A stretch of 25,873 bases of DNA. It comes from Chloroflexota bacterium. GTDB lineage: Bacteria > Chloroflexota > Dehalococcoidia > Lucifugimonadales > JADFKI01. A program made the translations under genes and the position numbers. This document shows, piece by piece, positions 9,802 to 21,439 of this stretch (its first letter is position 1; every line of letters starts with the position of its first letter). The stretch lies in the NCBI GenBank assembly GCA_024648655.1, contig JAGGDZ010000423.1, forward strand, positions 1-25,873. The letters run 5' to 3'. The notes below the pieces were generated by a model. It saw only the letters and a program-made list of their open reading frames with translations. It had not been told where the DNA came from and did no database searches.

Positions 9802-9873
9802 TTGCGCTACTTCCGCAGCAACGACAAAGCCTATGGTAAGTGATGCGATCTGATAGTGTTATGGTATGCAACA

Positions 9874-10443
9874 ATGAAGACAGCAATAATACTAACTCTG
9901 CTACTCGGACTCGCTGCTGCATTAGCGGCGCAAATTGGCTGTGGAACCGCCCCAGCCGCACAAGCCGATAAGACCGCATCGGTGGCTCGGGCTGAAAAGG
10001 AGGTAGGCTACAAGAAAGGGATGCACATTCCGGAATTCGGGATGAGCTTGCTTGACGGCACAAGGGTTACTTCGGCAAAGCTCGTTGAAGAAGGCAAGCC
10101 GACTTTCATCTATTTCCACGCCACCTGGTGAGGAACCTGCCGCGTCGAGTTGCGGCGCATCAAGGAAGAGATTGGTAGCAGATACAATGACCGGGTAACC
10201 TTTTACATAGTTGGCACCGATCCATCCGAGAGCATCGACATACTCGAAGCGGATAGAAAACGCGAAGGATTACCTTGGCTCACCGCTTACGCGGATGAAG
10301 GCATGTTGGAGAAACTGCAAATCTACACTCAACCATCGAAGGTGGCGCTCAGCGGAAATGGAATAATCACCCACCGATACGGATTCGGCAAAGGAGACTT
10401 CGAGAGTTGGAGCGACCTTTTCGATGACATCGGCGCCAATTAG
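9874..10443 (+). CDS. TlpA/thioredoxin-like redoxin, probable selenoprotein (U86xxC89), exported and possibly lipid-anchored
   Basis: ORFs 9856-10131 and 10150-10443 are in the same frame, separated only by TGA 10129-10131. Read-through gives KPTFIYFHATW-U-GTCRVELRRIKEE...FYIVGTDPSE...QPSKVALSGNG, a continuous thioredoxin fold with TGA at the first Cys of CxxC. Hydrophobic N-terminus ending in QIGC. Confidence 0.88.
10151..10159 (+). promoter_or_regulatory. Candidate SECIS apical hairpin (UGC-GGC-GCA) after the redoxin UGA
   Basis: TGCGGCGCA lies at +20 to +28 from the UGA. It extends to GA(GU bulge)UGC-GGC-GCA-UC (10147-10161). A competing stem GCCGC/GCGGC (10139-10156) is also possible. 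Confidence 0.55.
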
Positions 10444-10547
10444 AGGCATTTCTCGCTTTTCGTCGTTATGGAGCGCGGATCAGTGAGTGATTATTGATGG
10501 CAGCAAGGACTTACTTTCGCTGCTTCGCTGCGACGACGATCAGGCAG

Positions 10548-12008
10548 TTACGCCCCCTCCTTGCCCTGGTACACAATGGTGTCAGGCTTGAACACCGCCC
10601 AAGCAAACCAGAAATGACTGCCATGCACAACGGGAGTAAGGCTCTTGCCGGTAAGGGGACCTTCAACCGCGTTGCCTAGAATATCCCAGGTGCTCTCTGT
10701 CTGCTCATCTACAATTTTCCCGTCATTCACACTGAAAGACAGCTTCTGATCGTCAAGATGAGAGTCGAACACCCCCGCGGCGCCGACATCACGAGACTCG
10801 GCAATTGAGCTTCCGTCTAGCGCCGATGTCGTACCGAACTTGTGGAAAACAACGATACTGCGTTCTCCTAAATCATAGTTGATCGCTCCCTCGTCCTGCA
10901 GAATCGTCAATGGGAATGCCACATCCACATCGCCCAAGGTTACGGCTATGACGCGCTCGACAGGGAGTAGTCTTCCGTCGAGATCGCCTCTGAACAGGAA
11001 CGGATTACCATCCGCTGTGTCATAGCCGGCATAAGGATTGCGGCCGTACTGCCGGGCGTATCCGGTGTCTCGCGACAACACCTTACCTTGAGGATGCGCC
11101 TCTGCAAAGTCCGCGAACGACACGATCGATGCGGGCAGATGTTCCAATGTTCTCCCGGCATACTTCCCCACAATCCCCTCTCCTGTAAACTGCTGCCACC
11201 AGGAATGCGACTGACGATCGTACATAATCAGATCGGAGTTGCGAAGATTTCCTGATACTCCAAATTCGAGCAAGTCGCCATCCAAGCGCCTGTCAAAAGC
11301 GATCGCCGAATTGCACAGCGGGCAGAACGTAACTGCGATTGGCACATCGCCGACGTCGTCGTTGACTATCTCGTGCCATGTGAGAATCTGAAGTGGATAG
11401 GCTCGGGAATCGCCATTGACTTGCAGGGCGACCACCGGCTCGACATCCTTGAGCCACACCGATGCTTCGGACGGCGCAATGAATTTCGGCTCGTCGATCG
11501 ACGGGATATTGTCGCGCGGAATCACGAACTTTATCTGGCTATAGGGCACAGTATGCAATCGAAAGTCAGTATCCCATCCGCTAGTGCTGAGTCGCGCGGC
11601 ACTCAACGCCCTCTCATAGTCTGGATCAGGCTCTATCCCGTTTTCCCCGTCACCATTTGCTTCCAGCGTAGAGGTGGCAATAGGCGTTTCGACTGCAATG
11701 GAATTGGTGTCCGTCGGCATCTTTGCCAGCACAGTGGTCGCCACTTCCGCAGGAGTCGGAATGTCTGTTGACATAGATGGTTTCCCTGCGCCTGGAACGG
11801 GTGTAGGCGATACGGACGATGCAGTAGGAGGAATGCCGGACGACTGTATTGCTGTGGACTTTGGCGCCCTGTTCTGTTCCTGCACGACATACGGTTCCTC
11901 CGACGTGCTGCCGCACGCTCCCAGTAATCCTGCAACGAGAAGTAACGCGATAATCGACAAGGTAACCAACTTTGTAGTTGTAAGTCTGTTCCGCAAATGA
12001 TTCTCCAT
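10548..12008 (-). CDS. DUF3179-domain lipoprotein with a Pro/Thr/Ser-rich linker
   Basis: Lipobox LLGAC, low-complexity linker, then DNIPSIDEPKF, AYPLQILTWHEIVND, TFCPLCNSA, FGVSGNLRNSDLIMYDRQSHSWWQQFTG, HFWFAWAVFKP. Confidence 0.88.
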   Translation of the reverse strand: MENHLRNRLTTTKLVTLSIIALLLVAGLLGACGSTSEEPYVVQEQNRAPKSTAIQSSGIPPTASSVSPTPVPGAGKPSMSTDIPTPAEVATTVLAKMPTDTNSIAVETPIATSTLEANGDGENGIEPDPDYERALSAARLSTSGWDTDFRLHTVPYSQIKFVIPRDNIPSIDEPKFIAPSEASVWLKDVEPVVALQVNGDSRAYPLQILTWHEIVNDDVGDVPIAVTFCPLCNSAIAFDRRLDGDLLEFGVSGNLRNSDLIMYDRQSHSWWQQFTGEGIVGKYAGRTLEHLPASIVSFADFAEAHPQGKVLSRDTGYARQYGRNPYAGYDTADGNPFLFRGDLDGRLLPVERVIAVTLGDVDVAFPLTILQDEGAINYDLGERSIVVFHKFGTTSALDGSSIAESRDVGAAGVFDSHLDDQKLSFSVNDGKIVDEQTESTWDILGNAVEGPLTGKSLTPVVHGSHFWFAWAVFKPDTIVYQGKEGA

Positions 12009-12185
12009 TCCTTCGTTGGATCTCTCCCGCTACAAGTTTCTGTACCGAGAGACAACAGGATGTCTTGGATATATGAACCGGCATGACGCCAAGGCAACAC
12101 CATTTTCATTTTAGATGCTCGTTTCCGGTATAGGATGCCTACGTTTAGACAAGCTGCTATCAGGGTTCCTTAAGAGCTGAATAAC

Positions 12186-12239
12186 AGGTTAGAGGCGATT
12201 CGCCGGCAAGAGAGGTGCAAGCTTCGGAGCCTCTAACCT
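12186..12239. repeat. 11-bp perfect inverted repeat with a 32-nt spacer
   Basis: AGGTTAGAGGC (12186-12196) and GCCTCTAACCT (12229-12239). Confidence 0.85.
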
Positions 12240-12516
12240 TCAAGCCGCCAGCGAAGCGCAGGCTCGAAGAGACAGGACACGAAAGATAGGTAGAACAGCC
12301 AATATGTGTGTATATGGTTGCCGCCATCAAGTTGTTAGAGTCTCGGCTTAGATATCCCTAGTCTGTCGCATTCACCCAGATTTCCGCGGATGTAGTCGAT
12401 ACGCCGGACAAGCTCATCTACTCAAGTTCAAAGAGAGCGGGTACGAACTTGCACAGCGCAAGATCGCAGGCACCGTCAAATATGACAATACTCGTACTTT
12501 CCTGGTGACTCGCGAT
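12233..12516 (-). pseudogene. zwf: Eroded glucose-6-phosphate 1-dehydrogenase (5' fragment)
   Basis: 12516-12418 reads IASHQESTSIVIFDGACDLALCKFVPALFELE*, versus the canonical IVIFGASGDLARRKLVPALF. A second frame reads DELVRRIDYIRGNLGE...*...WLFYLSFVSCLFEPAL, versus RL.Y..GD and RLFYLS.PP.LF. It lies directly downstream of gnd on the same strand. Confidence 0.75.
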
Positions 12517-13421
12517 TAAGTCTTCCTTACGCTGTGCCCACCGAATTGATTTCGCATTGCCGCCAGCAATTTTGCGCCAAAGGGAGATTCCTGCCTAGAG
12601 CGAAAGCGCGCTTGCAAGGACGCCGCTATAACCGGCGTGGGAACCGCAAGGTCGATAGACTCCTCAAGCGTCCATCGGCCTTCGCCTGAATCTTCGACAT
12701 AGGCTTGGATTCCTTCGAGTTCACCGTCCTCATCGAGGGCGGCTGCCGTCAGATCGAGTAACCATGATCGAATTACGCTGCCATATCGCCAGATATGGGC
12801 GATCTGCGCCATGTCCAAGCCCAAGTCTTGCTTGGCGTTCATCAGCTCGAATCCTTCGGCGAACGCCTGCATCATGCCGTATTCAATGCCATTATGCACC
12901 ATTTTGACAAAGTGTCCTGCGCCCGAAGGGCCCACGTGGCCGTAACCTATGCTCTCACCTGGCGCAAGAGTGCGGAATACAGGTTCAAGCCGTGAGTAGG
13001 CATCAGCATCGCCTCCAACCATAAGGCTATATCCCTCAGTCAGGCCCCAGACACCTCCGCTTGTGCCTGCGTCCAGCATTGTGATGCCATCCTCCAACAA
13101 AGTGATGGCACGACGAATGGTGTCCCTGTAGTTGGAATTGCCGCCGTCGATTATTATGTCTCCCTCCGACAGTGCATCAGAGAGCGCATTTACTGTAGTA
13201 TCCGTGATCTCCCCGGCCGGAACCATAATCCAGACCGCGCGGGGAGGCGTCAGAACAGACACAAGCTCTTCGATGGAGTTTGCACCGGTAGCGCCAGCGT
13301 TCACGGCTGCACGACGTGCTTCAACGTCCGGGTCGAATGCAACTACGGTATGCCCATCATTCAGCAGACGCTGGGTCATATTGCCGCCCATTCGACCGAG
13401 ACCAACCATTCCTAATTCCAA
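12516..13421 (-). CDS. gnd: 6-phosphogluconate dehydrogenase, decarboxylating (short form)
   Basis: GMVGLGRMG, IIIDGGNS, DAGTSGGVWG, GAGHFVKMVHNGIEYG, RNQFGGH. TTG 13421 has a GGAGG RBS; the ORF track start is 13442. Confidence 0.93.
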   Translation of the reverse strand: MELGMVGLGRMGGNMTQRLLNDGHTVVAFDPDVEARRAAVNAGATGANSIEELVSVLTPPRAVWIMVPAGEITDTTVNALSDALSEGDIIIDGGNSNYRDTIRRAITLLEDGITMLDAGTSGGVWGLTEGYSLMVGGDADAYSRLEPVFRTLAPGESIGYGHVGPSGAGHFVKMVHNGIEYGMMQAFAEGFELMNAKQDLGLDMAQIAHIWRYGSVIRSWLLDLTAAALDEDGELEGIQAYVEDSGEGRWTLEESIDLAVPTPVIAASLQARFRSRQESPFGAKLLAAMRNQFGGHSVRKT

Positions 13422-13444
13422 CACGCCACCTCCATAGTCCATCT

Positions 13445-15064
13445 CTATTCCGAATGTCGGATGATTTCGCCTGTCATCTCGTCTAGCATCCGTACAGCGT
13501 CATCTCCAAGATCGACGCGAGCAACGCGGCGGCCCAAGGCGGTTAGCTCGTCCAGATCACCTTTTGCTTGTGCCGCTGCGAGAACACGAAAAGTGAATGC
13601 CTCGCCCGGTATTCTAACATCGGCATCTCCCAACTGAGTCAACTGGAAAAACAGACCGGACTCCGTTCCTCCTTTGTGTAATTGACCGGTGGAGTGCAGG
13701 TATCGAGGGCCATAGCCAAATGTAGTCGCAATGCCGAATTCGCGATTCACTCGACTGCGCAAGCGCGCGACCGCGTCCTGAAATTCCTGAGTTGGCTGGA
13801 CGTACGCAGTGATGGCAAGGTAGTCGCCCTGCTTCGACTGTGCAATCAATTGGGGAAGAGAGCTGATAGGCGGGAGCGGCGGTACAATCTCCGTTCGATA
13901 GTAGTCGGTGAGTAGTCGTGTGGTGTTGTCCTTAGCGCGTTGAACGTCAGGCTGGTCGAAAGGATGAATACCCAATATATTGCCGGCAACAGCGGTTGCG
14001 AACTCCCACCTGAAGAACTCCGCTCCCACATCGTATTCGTCTGAGAGGCGCAATCTGATCGTTGGAATGCCTGCGCCTTCGATAAGATTGATGTAGCCGT
14101 CCAGCTCATCCGTAGTATCGCCGTCAAGCCTCACATATACTACCGTCCTGTCGCTTCCAAGGTTATCAGGGTCGCACGGCGGCTCGCCCACAATCGGGAT
14201 AATGCCCTTGCCCTCTTTGCCGGTACTCTCAGCCAATAGCTGCTCGACCCAGAGTGCAAATCCCCACAATGACTCAGTTGTAATTATCGTGAGCTTGTCA
14301 CGACCTCGCAACGCGAGTGAAGCGATTGAAGCTCCCAGCCAAGCGCCGGGATTATCTCCGGACGGCGCCGCTTTTTTGCAGGCTAGACTCATCGCCTCCA
14401 CGCGAGCGAGCAATGTATCAATCTCGACTCCGGTCAGAGCCGCAGGCACCATACCGAAGAGGGATTGGACCGAGTAACGACCTCCAATGTTCGCCAGGTT
14501 CAAAAAGACTCGTCGGAAGCCATCCTCATGCGCCAAATCTTCAAGCGCGGTTCCACGGTCGCATATCGCAACGAAGTGATTGCCCGCCTTATCAGATCCG
14601 GTAACTTGTTCGACGAGCCTCCTGAAAAACTTGTACAGCGTATTCGACTCGACGGTCGCCCCGGACTTGGACGCAACGATAAACAGCGTTTTGTAACAGT
14701 CCACTTCGCGGACGACGGAGTCAATAGCATCCGGGACAGTAGTGTCCAGCGCAATAAGTTTCGGGTATCCTTTCGAGCTGCCGAAAAGACTGTGTATCGC
14801 AAGAGCTCCGAGGCTGCTGCCCCCCATCCCAAGCAAGACAATGTGCCGGTATCCTTCGTCCCTGACCGTGGCCGCGAATGCCTTTATTTCAGCGATACCC
14901 TCGCGCATGTCGCCCGCAACCGTGAGCCAGCCGAGCCTATCGCTAATCTCCGTTGGATCCGGCTTCCAGACAGTGTGGTCCAGTTCCCAGATTCTTCTCG
15001 GAACTTCGTTGCAGTCGAGGTCGGCAAGGGCATCTTTTACGGAATTTTCATACTGGTCGAGCAA
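13445..15064 (-). CDS. pgi: Glucose-6-phosphate isomerase (stand-alone form of the Tal-Pgi-type PGI domain)
   Basis: RLGWL, LLGMGGSSLG, IVASKSG.TVE, IGGRYS, EQLLAESTGKEGKG, FDQPDVQRAK, YGPRYLHSTGQLHKGG. Confidence 0.88.
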   Translation of the reverse strand: MLDQYENSVKDALADLDCNEVPRRIWELDHTVWKPDPTEISDRLGWLTVAGDMREGIAEIKAFAATVRDEGYRHIVLLGMGGSSLGALAIHSLFGSSKGYPKLIALDTTVPDAIDSVVREVDCYKTLFIVASKSGATVESNTLYKFFRRLVEQVTGSDKAGNHFVAICDRGTALEDLAHEDGFRRVFLNLANIGGRYSVQSLFGMVPAALTGVEIDTLLARVEAMSLACKKAAPSGDNPGAWLGASIASLALRGRDKLTIITTESLWGFALWVEQLLAESTGKEGKGIIPIVGEPPCDPDNLGSDRTVVYVRLDGDTTDELDGYINLIEGAGIPTIRLRLSDEYDVGAEFFRWEFATAVAGNILGIHPFDQPDVQRAKDNTTRLLTDYYRTEIVPPLPPISSLPQLIAQSKQGDYLAITAYVQPTQEFQDAVARLRSRVNREFGIATTFGYGPRYLHSTGQLHKGGTESGLFFQLTQLGDADVRIPGEAFTFRVLAAAQAKGDLDELTALGRRVARVDLGDDAVRMLDEMTGEIIRHSE

Positions 15065-15081
15065 AGCTTTCCTCTCTCACA

Positions 15082-15103
15082 GTAATATACAGGGTAATAT
15101 ACA
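15082..15103 (-). repeat. 10-bp direct repeat with a 12-bp period immediately upstream of the pgi RBS
   Basis: GTAATATACA at 15082-15091 and 15094-15103 (TGTATATTAC on the minus strand). Confidence 0.85.
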
Positions 15104-15272
15104 AAGGCGCCTGCACCAATAGACGAATCATATTTTTCCGCGCCAGCTGCCCACTTTGCCTATACATTATGCCGATATGCATGCATGCCGATATGCGCGC
15201 GCGGATGACAGGACGCGTGGCCCAGACTATTTTTACGCCACTTACGCCAGCACGCTTGAGCGCTTTTCCCTT

Positions 15273-15301
15273 TTGCCACTTGAAGCACAAGCAAGTATAA
15301 T
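15273..15301 (+). promoter_or_regulatory. Sigma70-type promoter for the MFS gene
   Basis: TTGCCA (15273-15278), 17 nt spacer, TATAAT (15296-15301). Confidence 0.65.
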
Positions 15302-15350
15302 CTGACGCAATGTTAAGATTAAACCCTACCCCTCTCACACTGAGCGACCG

Positions 15351-16646
15351 TTGGCATTAGGCATCCCTAGCCGACAAGGAAGTGCCAAGCCCGATCGCGA
15401 GCGACCCTCCAACAGGAAGAGCCTGCGACCTTGGTCGGCGCTCGCATTCCGCGACTACCGCACACTTTGGCTGTCGGGTGTCGCCCAGATGGTTACTATG
15501 CAGATGCGGACGCTTGTAAGCGCCGTATGGCTGTACGATGCCACGGGTTCAGGATGGCAACTCGGGCTGCTCGGCGGCGTGCAACTCCTGGTGCAGCTAC
15601 CCGCAATCCTGTACGGCGGCGCGCTTGCCGACCAGATAGACCGCAAGAAACTAATGGCGTACACGCAGCTTGTCAGCGTTGTACTTATCGGCGCAATGAC
15701 TGTGCTGGCGGCGAGAGACAGCCTGCTCCCCTGGCATATCTACACCGCTACCGCCATCCTAAGCGTGTCCAGCACTCTCGGCAACCCGTCGCGCTCTGCT
15801 CTTACGGCGAATGTCGTGCCACGCTCACACCTGATGCACGCCGTCGCGCTGAACACCGCGACATTCCAGATTGGGGCGGTCGCAGCGCCGCTTGCCTTTT
15901 CCGGCGCAGTCGAGCTTTTCAATGAAAACTACGCCTATATATTCGGCATTACCACACTCATCGCGCTGCCAAGTGTGGTAATGCCACTGCTGATTAGAAC
16001 TTCGGGCGTGCCGATTAACCGTCAGCAAGATGGTTCTGTAATAAGACGCATTATCGACGGCTTCCTGTATGTCAAAGGGCACCCGATACTACCCGGATTG
16101 TACATAATGGACATTGGGGTAACCATCGTGAGCCACTACCGCCAGATACTGCCGCTCTTCGCGGACAGGCTGTTCAAGGGCGGCGCGGCTACTGTGGGCA
16201 TATTGAACGCCGCGAACTCGGCGGGCGGCATACTCGGAACTTTCTCCGTACTGTTCCTCACACGCTTCCGGCGCAAAGGCATGATGGTCGTGTTCGCCAC
16301 GTTGATTTACGCCACGTTGCTTATCGCGCTTGGCTTCACGACCGCACTGTGGCTGGGCGTCATCATACTCGCCGGGCTGGGTGCGTCGGACGCAGTGGGC
16401 ATGGCGACACGCCAAACGACCGTGCAGCTCACCACATCGGACAATATGCGCGGCCGCGCCGTCAGTTTTTCGTCGGTGTCTGCCATGACCGCAAACAACC
16501 TTGGAACATTTGAAGTGGGTCTAATGTCGGATCTAATCGGCGCCGACAAGACTCTTATTTTAGGCGGCACAATCGGCATCGTCGTCGTGCTAGTCGTCTG
16601 GGCAACCGTGCGAGGAATCAGAGACTATCGCTATCCGGAGGATTGA
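15351..16646 (+). CDS. MFS transporter (EntS/DHA3-like)
   Basis: About 12 hydrophobic segments, motif A GALADQIDRKK, RDYRTLW N-terminus, MRGRAVS. Confidence 0.9.
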   Translation: MALGIPSRQGSAKPDRERPSNRKSLRPWSALAFRDYRTLWLSGVAQMVTMQMRTLVSAVWLYDATGSGWQLGLLGGVQLLVQLPAILYGGALADQIDRKKLMAYTQLVSVVLIGAMTVLAARDSLLPWHIYTATAILSVSSTLGNPSRSALTANVVPRSHLMHAVALNTATFQIGAVAAPLAFSGAVELFNENYAYIFGITTLIALPSVVMPLLIRTSGVPINRQQDGSVIRRIIDGFLYVKGHPILPGLYIMDIGVTIVSHYRQILPLFADRLFKGGAATVGILNAANSAGGILGTFSVLFLTRFRRKGMMVVFATLIYATLLIALGFTTALWLGVIILAGLGASDAVGMATRQTTVQLTTSDNMRGRAVSFSSVSAMTANNLGTFEVGLMSDLIGADKTLILGGTIGIVVVLVVWATVRGIRDYRYPED

Positions 16647-16726
16647 CTCTCTCTTGCAACGGTGAGTCTGGTATAGTGTGAAATAGAGAAGAGTTCTGGA
16701 ATCGTGAGAACGATGAGGTGGCAGAA

Positions 16727-17572
16727 ATGACGACTCACGGATACACCAACCCCGACATTCTGGTTGAAGGAGACTGGTTAGAGGAAGTAATTGACGATTC
16801 CAATATACGCATTGTCGATTGCGACCCTTACGACGCCTATGGGCGCGCTCATATCAGAAATGCCATAGGGATCCCGGTTCACCATTACATCAAGGAGCCT
16901 GGCTACGACGACTCCCCCCGTGGCTATCCGCTAGTTGCTCCGCCCGACACGATGAAGGAAGTAATGGAGCGTATGGGCATCGGCGACGACAATCTCGTAG
17001 TTGCCTATGACAGCAACGGCGCTCTCTGGTCAACACGACTGTGGTGGGTGCTCAACTATTACGGACACACGAATGTGAAAGTGCTCAACGGCGGCTGGAA
17101 GAAGTGGTATGACGAGGGCCGGCCAACGTCAATAGACATTCCGACCCCCGAAGACGTCACATTTACACCTAAAGCGGACTCCAGCCTTGTATGCACATTA
17201 GGCTATGGAGTGTCCAATGTCGGCAATGAAGATGTGGTCTTCCTTGACGTACGCTCTGACGGCGAGTGGGACGGCAGCAACTCACGGGGCAATACCCGAT
17301 CCGGGCGCATACCGGGCGCGGTTCATCTGGAATGGCTAAACTTCATAACCGACGACAAACATCAGACCATCAAGTCCGCCGATGAACTCCGGGCGATGCT
17401 CGAAGAAGTTGGGGCAACTCCTGACAAGGAAATCGTAACTTATTGACAGGGTGGTATCCGTGCGGCGCACGGAGTTTTCGTACTGAAGCTGCTCGGCTAT
17501 GAGCGCGCGCGAAACTATGATGGGTCAATGGGAGAGTGGGCAAACCGCGAAGATACACCTCTCATTGCATAA
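16727..17572 (+). CDS. Tandem-domain rhodanese/sulfurtransferase (SseA/CysA-like), probable selenoprotein (U240)
   Basis: The ORF track stops at TGA 17444-17446. The frame continues as IVTY-U-QGGIRAAHGVFVLKLLGYERARNYDGSMGEWANREDTPLIA* to TAA 17570-17572, supplying the active-site loop and the C-terminal YDGS.xEW signature. ATG 16727 has a GAGGT RBS. Confidence 0.92.
17457..17473 (+). promoter_or_regulatory. Candidate SECIS hairpin after the sulfurtransferase UGA
   Basis: Perfect 7-bp stem UCCGUGC/GCACGGA with a GGC loop, starting at +11 from the UGA. It contains TGCGGCGCA (17461-17469). Confidence 0.7.
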
Positions 17573-17615: not shown

Positions 17616-17648
17616 ACAGCGTTTCCCTTGCCGAGAGGGAAACGCTGT
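17616..17648 (+). terminator. Strong stem-loop between the sulfurtransferase and metH
   Basis: 13-bp perfect stem ACAGCGTTTCCCT/AGGGAAACGCTGT with a 7-nt loop. There is no clear U-tract on the + strand, so the terminator role is uncertain. Confidence 0.5.
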
Positions 17649-17695
17649 CTGCTCAATTAGCGCAAACCTTGCTTAGCAAATTCCCGGACTTTCCG

Positions 17696-20600
17696 ATGAC
17701 CAAAGCATCTACCGAGACATTCCTGACTGCGGACTGCACCGCTGAAATCGAACGCATCCTTGAAGAGCGAGTTATGGTACTGGACGGCGCCTGGGGCGTG
17801 ATGCTTCAACGCATGCCGTTATCCGAGGAGGATTACAGAGGCAACCTCTTCGCCGACCATCAACACGACATCAAAGGCTGCATAGACGTACTTTGCCTTA
17901 CGAGGCCGGACATCGTACTAGACGTCCAGCGGCAGTACCTGGATGCCGGTGCAGACATCTTGACGACCAACACTTTCACGGCGACGCAGTTCGGATTGTC
18001 CGAGTTTGGCATTGAAAGCTACGCCTATGAAATAAATCGCGCAGCTGCGAAGTTGGCTAGAATAACCGCCGATGAATACACAGAGCGTCAGCCGGAAAAA
18101 CCAAGGTTCGTTGCAGGCAGCATAGGTCCGACCAATAAGACGCTGTCGCTTTCGCCTGACGTTAACGACCCTGGGTATCGGGACGTAAGTTTTGATGAGT
18201 TGGTTGATGCTTATTCGGATGCTGCGCGTGGTCTTCTTTCAGGAGGCGTTCACATCCTGCTTGTGGAAACAGTCTTCGACACTCTCAATGCGAAGGCGGC
18301 GCTCTATGCCATTGATGCCGTCTTCGAAGAGATTGGCACCCGAGTTCCGGTGATGGTCTCTTTCACTGCCGTTGATTTGAGTGGACGCAACCTTTCCGGA
18401 CAGACCGCAGAAGCATTCTGTGCCTCCGTGTCTCACATTCCTTTGTTAAGCGTCGGTATCAACTGCTCCCTGGGCAGCGACCAGATTAGACCCTTCCTCG
18501 CATCCATTGCCGGCACCGCAACTCAGTTCGTTTCTTGCCATCCTAACGCAGGCCTCCCGGACGAATTCGGAGAATACAACGAGTCCTCCGCGCACATGTC
18601 CGCAAACTTGCGAGAGTTCGCAAAGAGTGGGCTTGCGAATATAGTAGGAAGTTGCTGCGGTTCGACACCGGGGCATACGAAGGCGATAGCCGATGCCGTG
18701 GAAGGTATTATCCCGCGCCAGCGTCTAGCAGCAGGTGCAAACACCGTCCTCAGTGGGCTTGAGGCTCTCGAATTACGTCCGGATTCCAATTTCACAAACA
18801 TCGGCGAACGAGCCAACGTTACCGGCTCCGCGCGATTCAGGCGACTCATACGTCGTGGCAAATATGAAGAAGCCATATCCGTAGCTCGTGAGCAGGTAGA
18901 AAATGGCGCGCAGATTCTCGACATCAACATGGACGAAGGCCTCTTGGACTCCGAAGCCGCAATGGAGCGCTACCTCAAGTTGATTGCTGGCGAACCCGAT
19001 ATTTCGCGGCTGCCTATCATGATTGACAGTTCCAGATTCGGAGTCATTGAAGCTGGCTTGAAGTGCCTTCAGGGAAAAGGAATAGTCAACTCTATCTCGC
19101 TCAAGGAAGGCAAGGACGAGTTCGTCAGGCAGGCGCGCATCGTGAAACGATATGGCGCGGCAGTTGTCGTGATGGCATTCGATGAGGAAGGACAAGCGGA
19201 CACGCTGCAACGCAAAATCTCCATTTGCACACGCTCGTATAACATCCTCACGGAGGATGTTGGATTCCCTCCTCAAGACATTATTTTTGACCCCAATATC
19301 TTTGCCATTGCCACCGGAATTGAGGAACACAGCGACTACGCTGTGGCATTCATCGAAGCGACTAGAGAATTGAAGCGTCTGTTCCCGCTGTGTCATGTAA
19401 GCGGTGGCGTAAGCAATGTATCCTTCTCATTTAGGGGAAATGAACGAGTCAGAGAAGCGCTCCATTCGGTCTTCCTGTATCACGCAATTCAAGCAGGCAT
19501 GGACATGGGGATAGTGAATGCCGGTCAATTGGCAGTCTATGACGATGTAGATGATGACCTGCTCACAGCGTCGGAGGATGTAATACTCAACAGGAGGGCT
19601 GATGCTACGGACCGACTGCTAACGCTGGCTGAAAGCGTTGAAAAGGGCGGGCGCAGTAATGTTCAAGGAAACTCATCGGAGGATAGCGGAAAGTGGCGCA
19701 CCCTCTCCGTTGAGGAGCGAATCCGTCACGCTCTGGTCGCCGGAATCGACTCGCACATCGAGAGTGATGTCGAAGAAGCGCGCTTGAAGTCGGACCGTGC
19801 GCTCGAAGTCATCGAAGGGCCTCTGATGGAAGGAATGAACACGGTAGGCGACCTGTTCGGATCTGGACGGATGTTTTTGCCACAGGTGGTCAAGAGCGCT
19901 CGCGTTATGAAAAAGGCTGTAGCGGTACTTGTTCCACATATAGACGCAGAGAATGAGAACGGTGAACTCTTCCGGTCCAATGGCAAGATTGTCATCGCCA
20001 CCGTCAAGGGAGACGTTCACGACATCGGCAAGAACATCGTTGGTGTGGTTCTTGGCTGCAATAACTATGAAGTAATTGATTTGGGTGTAATGACACCCTT
20101 CCAGCAAATTCTTGATGTCGCAAAGGACGCGAACGCGGATGTCATCGGTTTGAGCGGACTGATAACACCGTCGTTGGATGAGATGATCACAGTCGCCAGC
20201 GAAATGTCCCGCCAGGGATTCGACATTCCCCTGCTCATAGGAGGGGCTGCTACTTCTCCGGCGCATACAGCCGTCAGAATCGCGCCCGAATATCAACATG
20301 GCGTCATACATGTAAGAGACGCATCGCGCTCGGTGACGACCATGAACGCCTTAGTTGGCGAAGACACAAGCCGAGAGTTCATAGCACAGACTAAAGAACG
20401 CTATGACAAGGTGCGTGCCGACCGAGCTTCACGCGATGCTCAGGCTCAACTGCTTTCATTGAGTGACGCGCGTTTGCGGCAACAGAATTTTGACTGGCAA
20501 TCCACAGTTGAGCCTCCTCCGACGTTCACTGGGCTAAAGGTGTTGGAAGACTACCCGCTAACCGAGCTAAGAGATTACATCAGCTGGACACCGTTCTTCG

Positions 20601-21439
20601 GCGCCTGGGAGCTACGCGGGGCGTATCCGGCAATTTTCCAAAGCCCAATCTATGGTGAACAAGCTAAAAGCCTCTTCAACGATGCTCAGTCTCTTTTGCA
20701 AGAAATGATTGATCGCAAAGTCCTGGAGGCGAGAGCAGTAATAGGCTTCTTTCCCGCAAATTCAGTTGGCGACGATGTTGAGCTATACGGAGACGATAGG
20801 CGAAACGAGACTGTAGCCACTTTCCATTTCTTGCGGCAGCAGTGGGACAAGTCGCGTCAGCGGGCCAATTTGCCGGTGGAAGACTATTGCCTTGCGGACT
20901 TTATCGCGCCAAAGGAGTCCGGCATTGCAGACTACATCGGCGCATTTGTAGTTACTGCGGGAATCGGTTCCGAAGAATATGCAGCTTCTTTAGAAGCCAA
21001 GAACGACGACTACAATGCCATAATGTCCAGGGCTATCGCCGACAGGTTGGCAGAGGCATTCAGCGAGCGACTGCACGAGCGCGTTCGGAAAGAGTTCTGG
21101 GGATACGCGCCGCACGAAAACTTCGACAGTTACAGTCTGTTGAAGGAAGAATATCGGGGTATTAGACCGGCCTTCGGATATCCGGCATGTCCGGACCACA
21201 CCGAGAACGAGACACTCTGGAAGCTTCTCGACGCCGAAAATCTCATTGGAACGCGGCTCACGGAGAATTACGCTATCTTGCCTACGGCGTCAACGGCAGG
21301 ATTATACTTTTCGCACCCGGGATCTCGCTATTTCGGAGTAGGACGCATTGGTCGCGACCAGATAGAGAACTATGCTCTCAGAAAGGGAATGTCAGTCTCA
21401 GAGATTTCACGCTGGCTGTCTCCTAACATTGTGAATTGA
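17696..21439 (+). CDS. metH: Cobalamin-dependent methionine synthase
   Basis: [37 protein letters not shown] (DxHxxG B12-binding motif), [14 protein letters not shown] 17696 preferred to TTG 17669. Confidence 0.97.

Follow-up and report, generated by a model that had tools for sequence, protein, structure and literature searches.

In the selenocysteine insertion sequence (SECIS) of Escherichia coli fdhF and fdnG and in the SelB–SECIS system of Moorella thermoacetica, the minimal SelB-binding stem-loop starts about 11 nt after the UGA codon, and a G and a U of its loop are the main contacts. The consensus of bacterial SECIS elements, i.e. the bSECISearch model of Zhang and Gladyshev as summarised in PMC13188914 (section 5), comprises an apical loop of 3–9 nt, an upper stem of 4–16 bp and a distance of 16–37 nt from UGA to loop, with a G at loop position 1 or 2 which is often followed by G or U. 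Here we describe two selenoprotein genes, a redoxin and a rhodanese-related sulfurtransferase, in a 25.9-kb stretch of DNA (25,873 nt; contig JAGGDZ010000423.1 of the Chloroflexota metagenome-assembled genome (MAG) GCA_024648655.1), which as a whole is called the window. The in-frame UGA of each gene is followed by the same nine nucleotides, TGCGGCGCA (the 9-mer), which an earlier note on this DNA had proposed as the core of a lineage-specific SECIS. Two statements, taken jointly, very probably hold: the window contains two bacterial SECIS elements which are canonical and independent of each other, each belonging to one selenoprotein family only, and the shared TGCGGCGCA is a chance overlap of two G+C-rich stems, not a common recognition element.

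Both protein families have been described previously. The rhodanese-related sulfurtransferase COG2897, with a UxxG motif, is among the selenoprotein families of the Sargasso Sea published in 2005 (PMC1088965, Table 1); going by the legend of Figure 3 of that paper, a predicted SECIS is drawn for a Sargasso Sea member, and in PMC13188914 the family is 'form 2/4'. Thiol–disulfide isomerase-like and thioredoxin-like UxxC selenoproteins have also been reported (PMC1088965, PMC2398784, PMC13188914), the isomerase-like ones from the Sargasso Sea in 2005 (PMC1088965). The two hairpins of the window are ordinary family-specific SECIS elements in selenoprotein families known since 2005. What is added here is the near-invariance of the rhodanese hairpin across four phyla and its absence from cysteine (Cys) forms, together with further instances of the bacterial consensus from SAR202 Chloroflexota.

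Selenoprotein genes and hairpins of the window

The redoxin gene is located at 9856..10443 on the + strand and starts either with GTG at 9856 or with ATG at 9874. Its frame of 195 codons, translated with TGA as U, reads ...FHATW-U-GTCRVELRRIK..., and its thioredoxin fold and W-U-G-T-C redox motif are identified by the translation, Pfam and homologues. The UGA for selenocysteine (Sec) is at 10129..10131 (U92); TGA is found there in 55 homologues and TGC or TGT in five Cys homologues, which read WCxxC, so that U is the first position of CxxC. The Pfam matches AhpC-TSA, Redoxin and Thioredoxin all span residue 92. The protein resembles the reported UxxC selenoproteins in its fold, its motif, its marine metagenomic origin and its many Cys homologues. 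The N-terminus (MKTAIILTLLLGLAAALAAQIGCG..., window 9856-9960) is hydrophobic and resembles a lipoprotein or signal leader, which suggests that the redoxin may be an extracytoplasmic thiol–disulfide oxidoreductase of the TlpA/ResA type.

The rhodanese gene occupies 16718..17572 of the same strand, with GTG 16718 or ATG 16727 as the start codon. Its 284-codon frame reads ...IVTY-U-QGGIRAAHGV..., and translation, Pfam and orthologues identify a two-domain sulfurtransferase with the active-site loop U-Q-G-G-I-R-A-A-H. Pfam Rhodanese matches two stretches of the protein (E = 1.3e-35) and the match spans U; the domains are in tandem and Sec is at the catalytic Cys of the C-terminal one. The UGA (17444..17446, U243) is replaced by TGC or TGT in Cys homologues, in which U aligns with the C of CQGGIRAAH or CRLGVRAS. 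The two domains, the Sec at the catalytic Cys and the UxxG motif are those of the COG2897 Sec-rhodanese, and no difference from it was found. Both UGAs are genuine Sec codons, as the earlier note had taken them to be.

Concerning the hairpins, that of the redoxin is at 10142..10158 and has a 6-bp stem (5' arm GCGUCG, 10142-10147; 3' arm CGGCGC, 10153-10158) with the 5-nt loop AGUUG (10148-10152), 16 nt from UGA to loop. The rhodanese hairpin, at 17457..17473, has a 7-bp stem (5' arm UCCGUGC, 17457-17463; 3' arm GCACGGA, 17467-17473) and the 3-nt loop GGC (17464-17466), 17 nt from the UGA. Both are coding-region hairpins immediately 3' of a Sec-UGA, agree with the bacterial consensus in all its sequence and structure features, are kept in Sec forms and lost in Cys forms, and are supported by covariation. 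Nothing structural separates them from the consensus, although the rhodanese loop has G–G and the best-studied cases have G–U. As in fdhF, fdnG and Moorella, both stems start at +11 after the UGA, and the redoxin loop carries such a GU, whereas the stem sequences are different and no bulged U is evident in the hairpins of the window. An Rfam scan of the window at gathering thresholds returned tRNA-Asn only and no match to a SECIS family.

In the mechanism we propose, modelled on what is established for E. coli and Moorella, SelB-GTP with Sec-tRNA(Sec) would use its C-terminal winged-helix domains to dock on the apical loop of either hairpin; each hairpin begins 11 nt after the UGA and has a G in the first two positions of its small loop. 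At docking the UGA, about 16–17 nt upstream of the loop, would be in the ribosomal A site, and Sec insertion would thereby outcompete release factor 2.

The rhodanese hairpin

The isolated hairpin UCCGUGC-GGC-GCACGGA has a predicted energy of -9.9 kcal/mol, and the 7-bp perfect stem with a GGC triloop that the earlier note described for this gene is confirmed. Rhodanese orthologues with a single TGA were found in most of the 150 genomes of the order that were searched. The first 30 orthologues fetched from the order (57–100% amino-acid identity) all contain the 9-mer and the hairpin, and all read ATC CGT GCG GCG CAC GG(A); the two Gly codons before this tract use all four synonyms. In an alignment of 47 distinct sequences (A2), the third positions of the codons for R, A, A and H have entropies of 0.15, 0, 0 and 0.25 bit, respectively, compared with 1.79 and 1.73 bits in the two Gly codons beside them. 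The stem is paired in 96% of the cells of A2, compared with 17–70% when the partner is slid, and RNAalifold predicts the same helix with the loop GGC. Base 1 of the loop, which falls on the synonymous third position in the first of the Ala codons, is unpaired; it is G in 47/47 sequences, which is the signature that would be expected of a loop G in contact with SelB.

Double-sided changes are found in four stem pairs; for example, the outer C-G becomes A-U through AUC...GGA to AUA...GUA. Covariation is nearly absent from the stem core because each wobble base pairs with a base fixed by the protein: the Arg third position pairs with the His second, the His third with the Arg second, and the third position of the second Ala codon with the second position of the first. 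The case is a clear illustration of an in-frame RNA hairpin freezing synonymous sites. An extended lower stem, which would pair GGN GGN with downstream codons, is seen in many single-sequence folds, but it was not recovered by RNAalifold and was rejected.

Across four phyla, 98 distinct Sec orthologues keep the hairpin with a mean of 6.78 of 7 pairs and 92 of them carry the 9-mer, whereas 18 Cys homologues have a mean of 3.0 pairs of 7 and none has the 9-mer. Four of the Cys homologues have the identical peptide CQGGIRAA and form only 2–4 of the 7 pairs, with the codons CGG GCT GCT, CGA GCC GCT, CGT GCA GCA and AGG GCA GCT. Among the 80 best GTDB matches to the Sec-rhodanese, TGA is present in 80/80 and the 9-mer in 78/80, and these matches include MAGs labelled Candidatus Entotheonella, Candidatus Binatia, Deltaproteobacteria and Thermodesulfobacteriota. 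The hairpin accompanies its gene in Chloroflexota, Binatia, Entotheonella and Desulfobacterota; it is a property of the gene family and not of a lineage, and the proposed lineage specificity does not hold.

Also, Sec-rhodanese orthologues with 66–76% amino-acid identity and an identical SECIS core are present in Entotheonella, Binatia and Desulfobacterota MAGs (loci L211, L212, L215-L217, L219, L220, L222, L223, L231, L242, L250 and L253), which suggests that gene and SECIS may have spread together horizontally; going by their isolate names, some of these MAGs may come from sponges. In a divergent Sec-rhodanese paralogue (L128, G130:C2:717856-718865), with YUQGGARSAT at the active site, the GGC hairpin has been lost; the sequence there, GCG CGG TCG GCG ACC GCG, can form another short hairpin, GCGGU-CGGCG-ACCGC, which may point to SECIS turnover inside one family.

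The redoxin hairpin

Homologous matches to the redoxin that contain one in-frame TGA number over 100 in the order, often as several paralogues per genome. In an alignment of 55 distinct Sec redoxin sequences (A1), the conserved element is a 6-bp stem (columns 14-19 / 25-30) with a 5-nt loop; its consensus is GCGCCG-AGUUG-CGGCGC and the window has GCGUCG-AGUUG-CGGCGC. The stem is paired in 87.9% of the cells, compared with 28–57% when the partner is slid. Both sides are changed in 36 cells, distributed over five of the six pairs, and none of 500 shuffles matches the observed values. Compensated variants include GCGCUG/CAGCGC, GCUCCG/CGGAGC, GGGCCG/CGGUCC, GUGCCU/AGGCAC and CCGCCG/CGGCGG, and in one subgroup a bulged U interrupts the 3' arm (CGG-U-CGC). 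Several of the compensatory substitutions are not silent (R to Q, A to S/T, E to S), and it is therefore the RNA, not the peptide, that is kept. Looking at the loop separately, GUU is found in 55/55 Sec sequences and in 0/5 Cys homologues; Glu is always GAG and Leu always UUR, despite the synonymous alternatives. In the five Cys homologues that Leu codon is CUC or CUU, and 2.0 of the 6 pairs are kept. RNAalifold recovers the inner four pairs and the AGUUG loop.

The functional SECIS of the redoxin mRNA in this species might instead be a shifted register (+7), UGCCGCG-UCGAGU-UGCGGCG, in which the 9-mer is again in the 3' arm. We regard this as very unlikely. The register is the minimum-free-energy fold of the window redoxin and its most stable perfect hairpin, and 79.7% of its cells are paired across the redoxin family; however, it shows no double-sided change in 55 sequences and does not exceed the shuffle controls in any measure. 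Its loop has no G before position 3, which departs from the consensus; part of the invariant GUU would fall in the loop and part in the stem, and the hairpin picked by RNAalifold is the one with AGUUG.

The shared 9-mer

The 9-mer has exactly two copies in the window, both on the + strand. The copy at 10151..10159 consists of loop bases 4-5 (UG) of the redoxin hairpin, its entire 3' arm CGGCGC and one flanking A, and the copy at 17461..17469 of the rhodanese loop GGC together with the three bases next to it in each arm. GGC is thus unpaired in the rhodanese hairpin and base-paired in that of the redoxin, and it is because the 9-mer lies across the loop of one hairpin and across the 3' arm of the other that we take the match for a chance overlap. 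The positions and offsets (+20 and +15) in the earlier note are correct, as is its statement that the genes are unrelated and that the frames differ (TTG CGG CGC ATC vs CGT GCG GCG CAC), by which a shared protein constraint is ruled out. Its flexible spacing is not found, however: both stems begin at +11, and the apparent spacing of 15 vs 20 arises because the 9-mer was taken as the reference point. Both copies do lie within SECIS hairpins, as the note had it, but not within the same hairpin, since covariation in the redoxin supports GCGYCG-AGUUG-CGGCGC, and the 'bulged stem' given for this gene does not stand, the minimum-free-energy fold using the 9-mer as a 3' arm.

Concerning the probability of the match, two or more copies of the 9-mer occur in 13 of 100 dinucleotide shuffles of the window, and the whole genome (2.83 Mb, 533 contigs, 57% G+C) contains 139 copies. 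For two random 30-nt coding segments of this genome the probability of having a 9-mer in common is 0.003, close to the 0.002 estimated in the earlier note. We also surveyed the 45 nt after each of 15 confident Sec-UGAs of the genome and found five non-paralogous pairs with an exact common 9-mer. One is the redoxin–rhodanese pair; the others, summarised as four independent pairs of unrelated selenoprotein genes, are UGSC-a with each of two near-identical Rdx copies, DsbA-a with AhpC, and AhpC with SelD, the tally of five counting both Rdx copies separately. Common 9-mers are frequent among unrelated selenoprotein genes here, and the match is therefore not exceptional.

The proposal that UGC-GGC-GCA is a common, lineage-specific GGC-triloop core, recognised by SelB in both genes at a variable distance from the UGA, is highly improbable. 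It would account for an exact 9-mer after both UGAs in different frames, at the low chance probability given above, and the rhodanese copy is truly a GGC triloop. In the redoxin family, however, pairing of the UGC-GGC-GCA fold (with an outer G-C) reaches 42% of cells and its covariation is no higher than in the shuffle and slide controls, against the 36 compensatory cells of the competing hairpin; this fold was rejected, and the compensatory changes that the earlier note had looked to are found in the own hairpins of both families and not, beyond controls, in the redoxin triloop. The 9-mer is present in 8/55 redoxin homologues and, within 60 nt of the UGA, in none of the 13 other confident selenoprotein genes of the genome, which is the first of the outcomes that the note had said would speak against its idea. 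Scanning the genome for TGA-N(10-25)-TGCGGCGCA gave 33 matches vs 30.6 expected from the TGA frequency; the two genes of the window are the only in-frame UGAs with coding potential on both sides among them, and no new candidate was obtained. The occurrence of the rhodanese hairpin in four phyla and the other four pairs with common 9-mers also stand against a common core. A lineage-wide 9-mer SECIS would, if true, have been a simple probe for whole selenoproteomes, and this was not borne out.

A bolder possibility, to which we give very little credence, is that the SelB of SAR202 has an added preference for a GCGGCGC-like tract; the two SECIS elements would then have converged on the 9-mer, as loop in one and arm in the other, and the frozen rhodanese hairpin would owe its passage between four phyla to being an unusually portable, strong SECIS. 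That the hairpins are by-products of protein constraint or G+C-rich codon usage, without RNA function, can be dismissed almost with certainty: the peptides IRAAH and ELRR are highly conserved and the genome is G+C-rich, but in Cys homologues whose peptide is likewise CQGGIRAA the codons are different and the hairpin is gone, synonymous sites are frozen inside the rhodanese hairpin only, and compensation in the redoxin stem even changes amino acids.

Several points weigh against two independent canonical elements with a fortuitous match. What the sequences show is the two structures, their Sec-specific conservation and covariation and the presence of the Sec machinery, whereas SelB binding and read-through are inferred. 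Since the orthologues share ancestry, fewer of the observations are independent than the counts would indicate. In the window redoxin the shifted +7 register is 2.6 kcal/mol more stable than the AGUUG hairpin (-10.4 vs -7.8 kcal/mol) and could compete with it in vivo, though it shows no covariation. A match in this one pair has a low a priori probability, about 0.003, and the coincidence is drawn from the structural evidence rather than proven.

In practice, the two family-specific hairpins are of use for annotating marine MAGs, those of SAR202 among them, in which gene callers end Sec-rhodanese and Sec-redoxin genes early at the UGA.

Selenocysteine machinery and other selenoprotein genes

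The closest GTDB relatives of the genome are Dehalococcoidia or 'SAR202 cluster' MAGs, and in the literature searched SAR202 and selenocysteine are brought together in incidental papers only. The Sec machinery of the MAG consists of one tRNA-Sec, selA, selD with its own in-frame TGA, and a full-length selB (2-580 of 581 positions, above the curated cut-off). Selenoprotein genes were screened by considering all TGAs with coding potential on both sides, followed by Pfam on the top candidates; a gene was regarded as confident when a domain spans U or when it matches a Sec family. At least 15 were found: AhpD/CMD, thioredoxin-NHL, DUF3179, four UGSC, two DsbA-like, AhpC-like, two Rdx/SelW-like, SelD, and the redoxin and rhodanese of the window. 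Those outside the window are on contigs C335, C173, C469, C470, C447, C293, C314, C387, C461, C491, C38, C238 and C349. All 15 belong to published selenoprotein families (PMC1088965, PMC2398784, PMC13188914).

The hairpin loops of the other genes are GUU (or AGUUU), AGUU, UGG, GUG, GUG, UGUAU, CGGGCC, CGGGAU, AGUUG, UGGAU (twice) and GUA. A G at loop position 1 or 2 and a UGA-to-loop distance of 16–33 nt are found in 14/15 selenoprotein genes; the exception is the Sec-form DUF3179, for which a search for a perfect hairpin gave no convincing one. The loop AGUU(G/U) recurs in four unrelated-looking hairpins, those of the redoxin (10148-10152), AhpC-like, thioredoxin-NHL and AhpD genes (the last three on C491, C173 and C335), and is encoded in frame by [E/Q]-L (GAG/CAG UUG) in three of the four. 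It is present in more genes than the 9-mer and carries the G-U expected for SelB contact.

The two near-identical Rdx/SelW-like genes are on separate small contigs (C38:451-741 and C238:881-1171) and have 28 identical nucleotides after the UGA. They may reflect strain heterogeneity or contamination (6.4% for this MAG) and not a true duplication. The formate dehydrogenase alpha homologues in the MAG have no in-frame stop, so no Sec form of this enzyme was found. Many top hits of the screen were rejected as adjacent genes in the same frame (NuoL + DUF4286, ABC transporter genes, MiaB + NadA) and others as false N- or C-terminal extensions (aminotransferase, luciferase-like, DUF3574). Twelve screened candidates gave no Pfam match (L022, L024, L031-L033, L035, L037, L039, L041, L043-L045), and the Pfam scan covered the fetched candidates other than six (L040, L042, L046-L049).

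Neighbouring genes

Directly after the Sec-redoxin gene, and convergent to it, lies a Cys-form DUF3179 gene (10548-12008, - strand) with the motif FCPLCNS. DUF3179 is also the neighbour of the redoxin in at least one relative of the same genus (L082), and the Sec-form DUF3179 paralogue of this genome, with AWUTLCNS, is on contig C469; redoxin and DUF3179 may be functionally paired. The Sec-rhodanese gene is preceded by a major facilitator superfamily transporter (15351-16646, +) and followed by a full-length cobalamin-dependent methionine synthase, MetH (17669-21439, +). The short gap between the Sec-rhodanese and MetH genes contains a predicted terminator-like hairpin at about 17625-17650.

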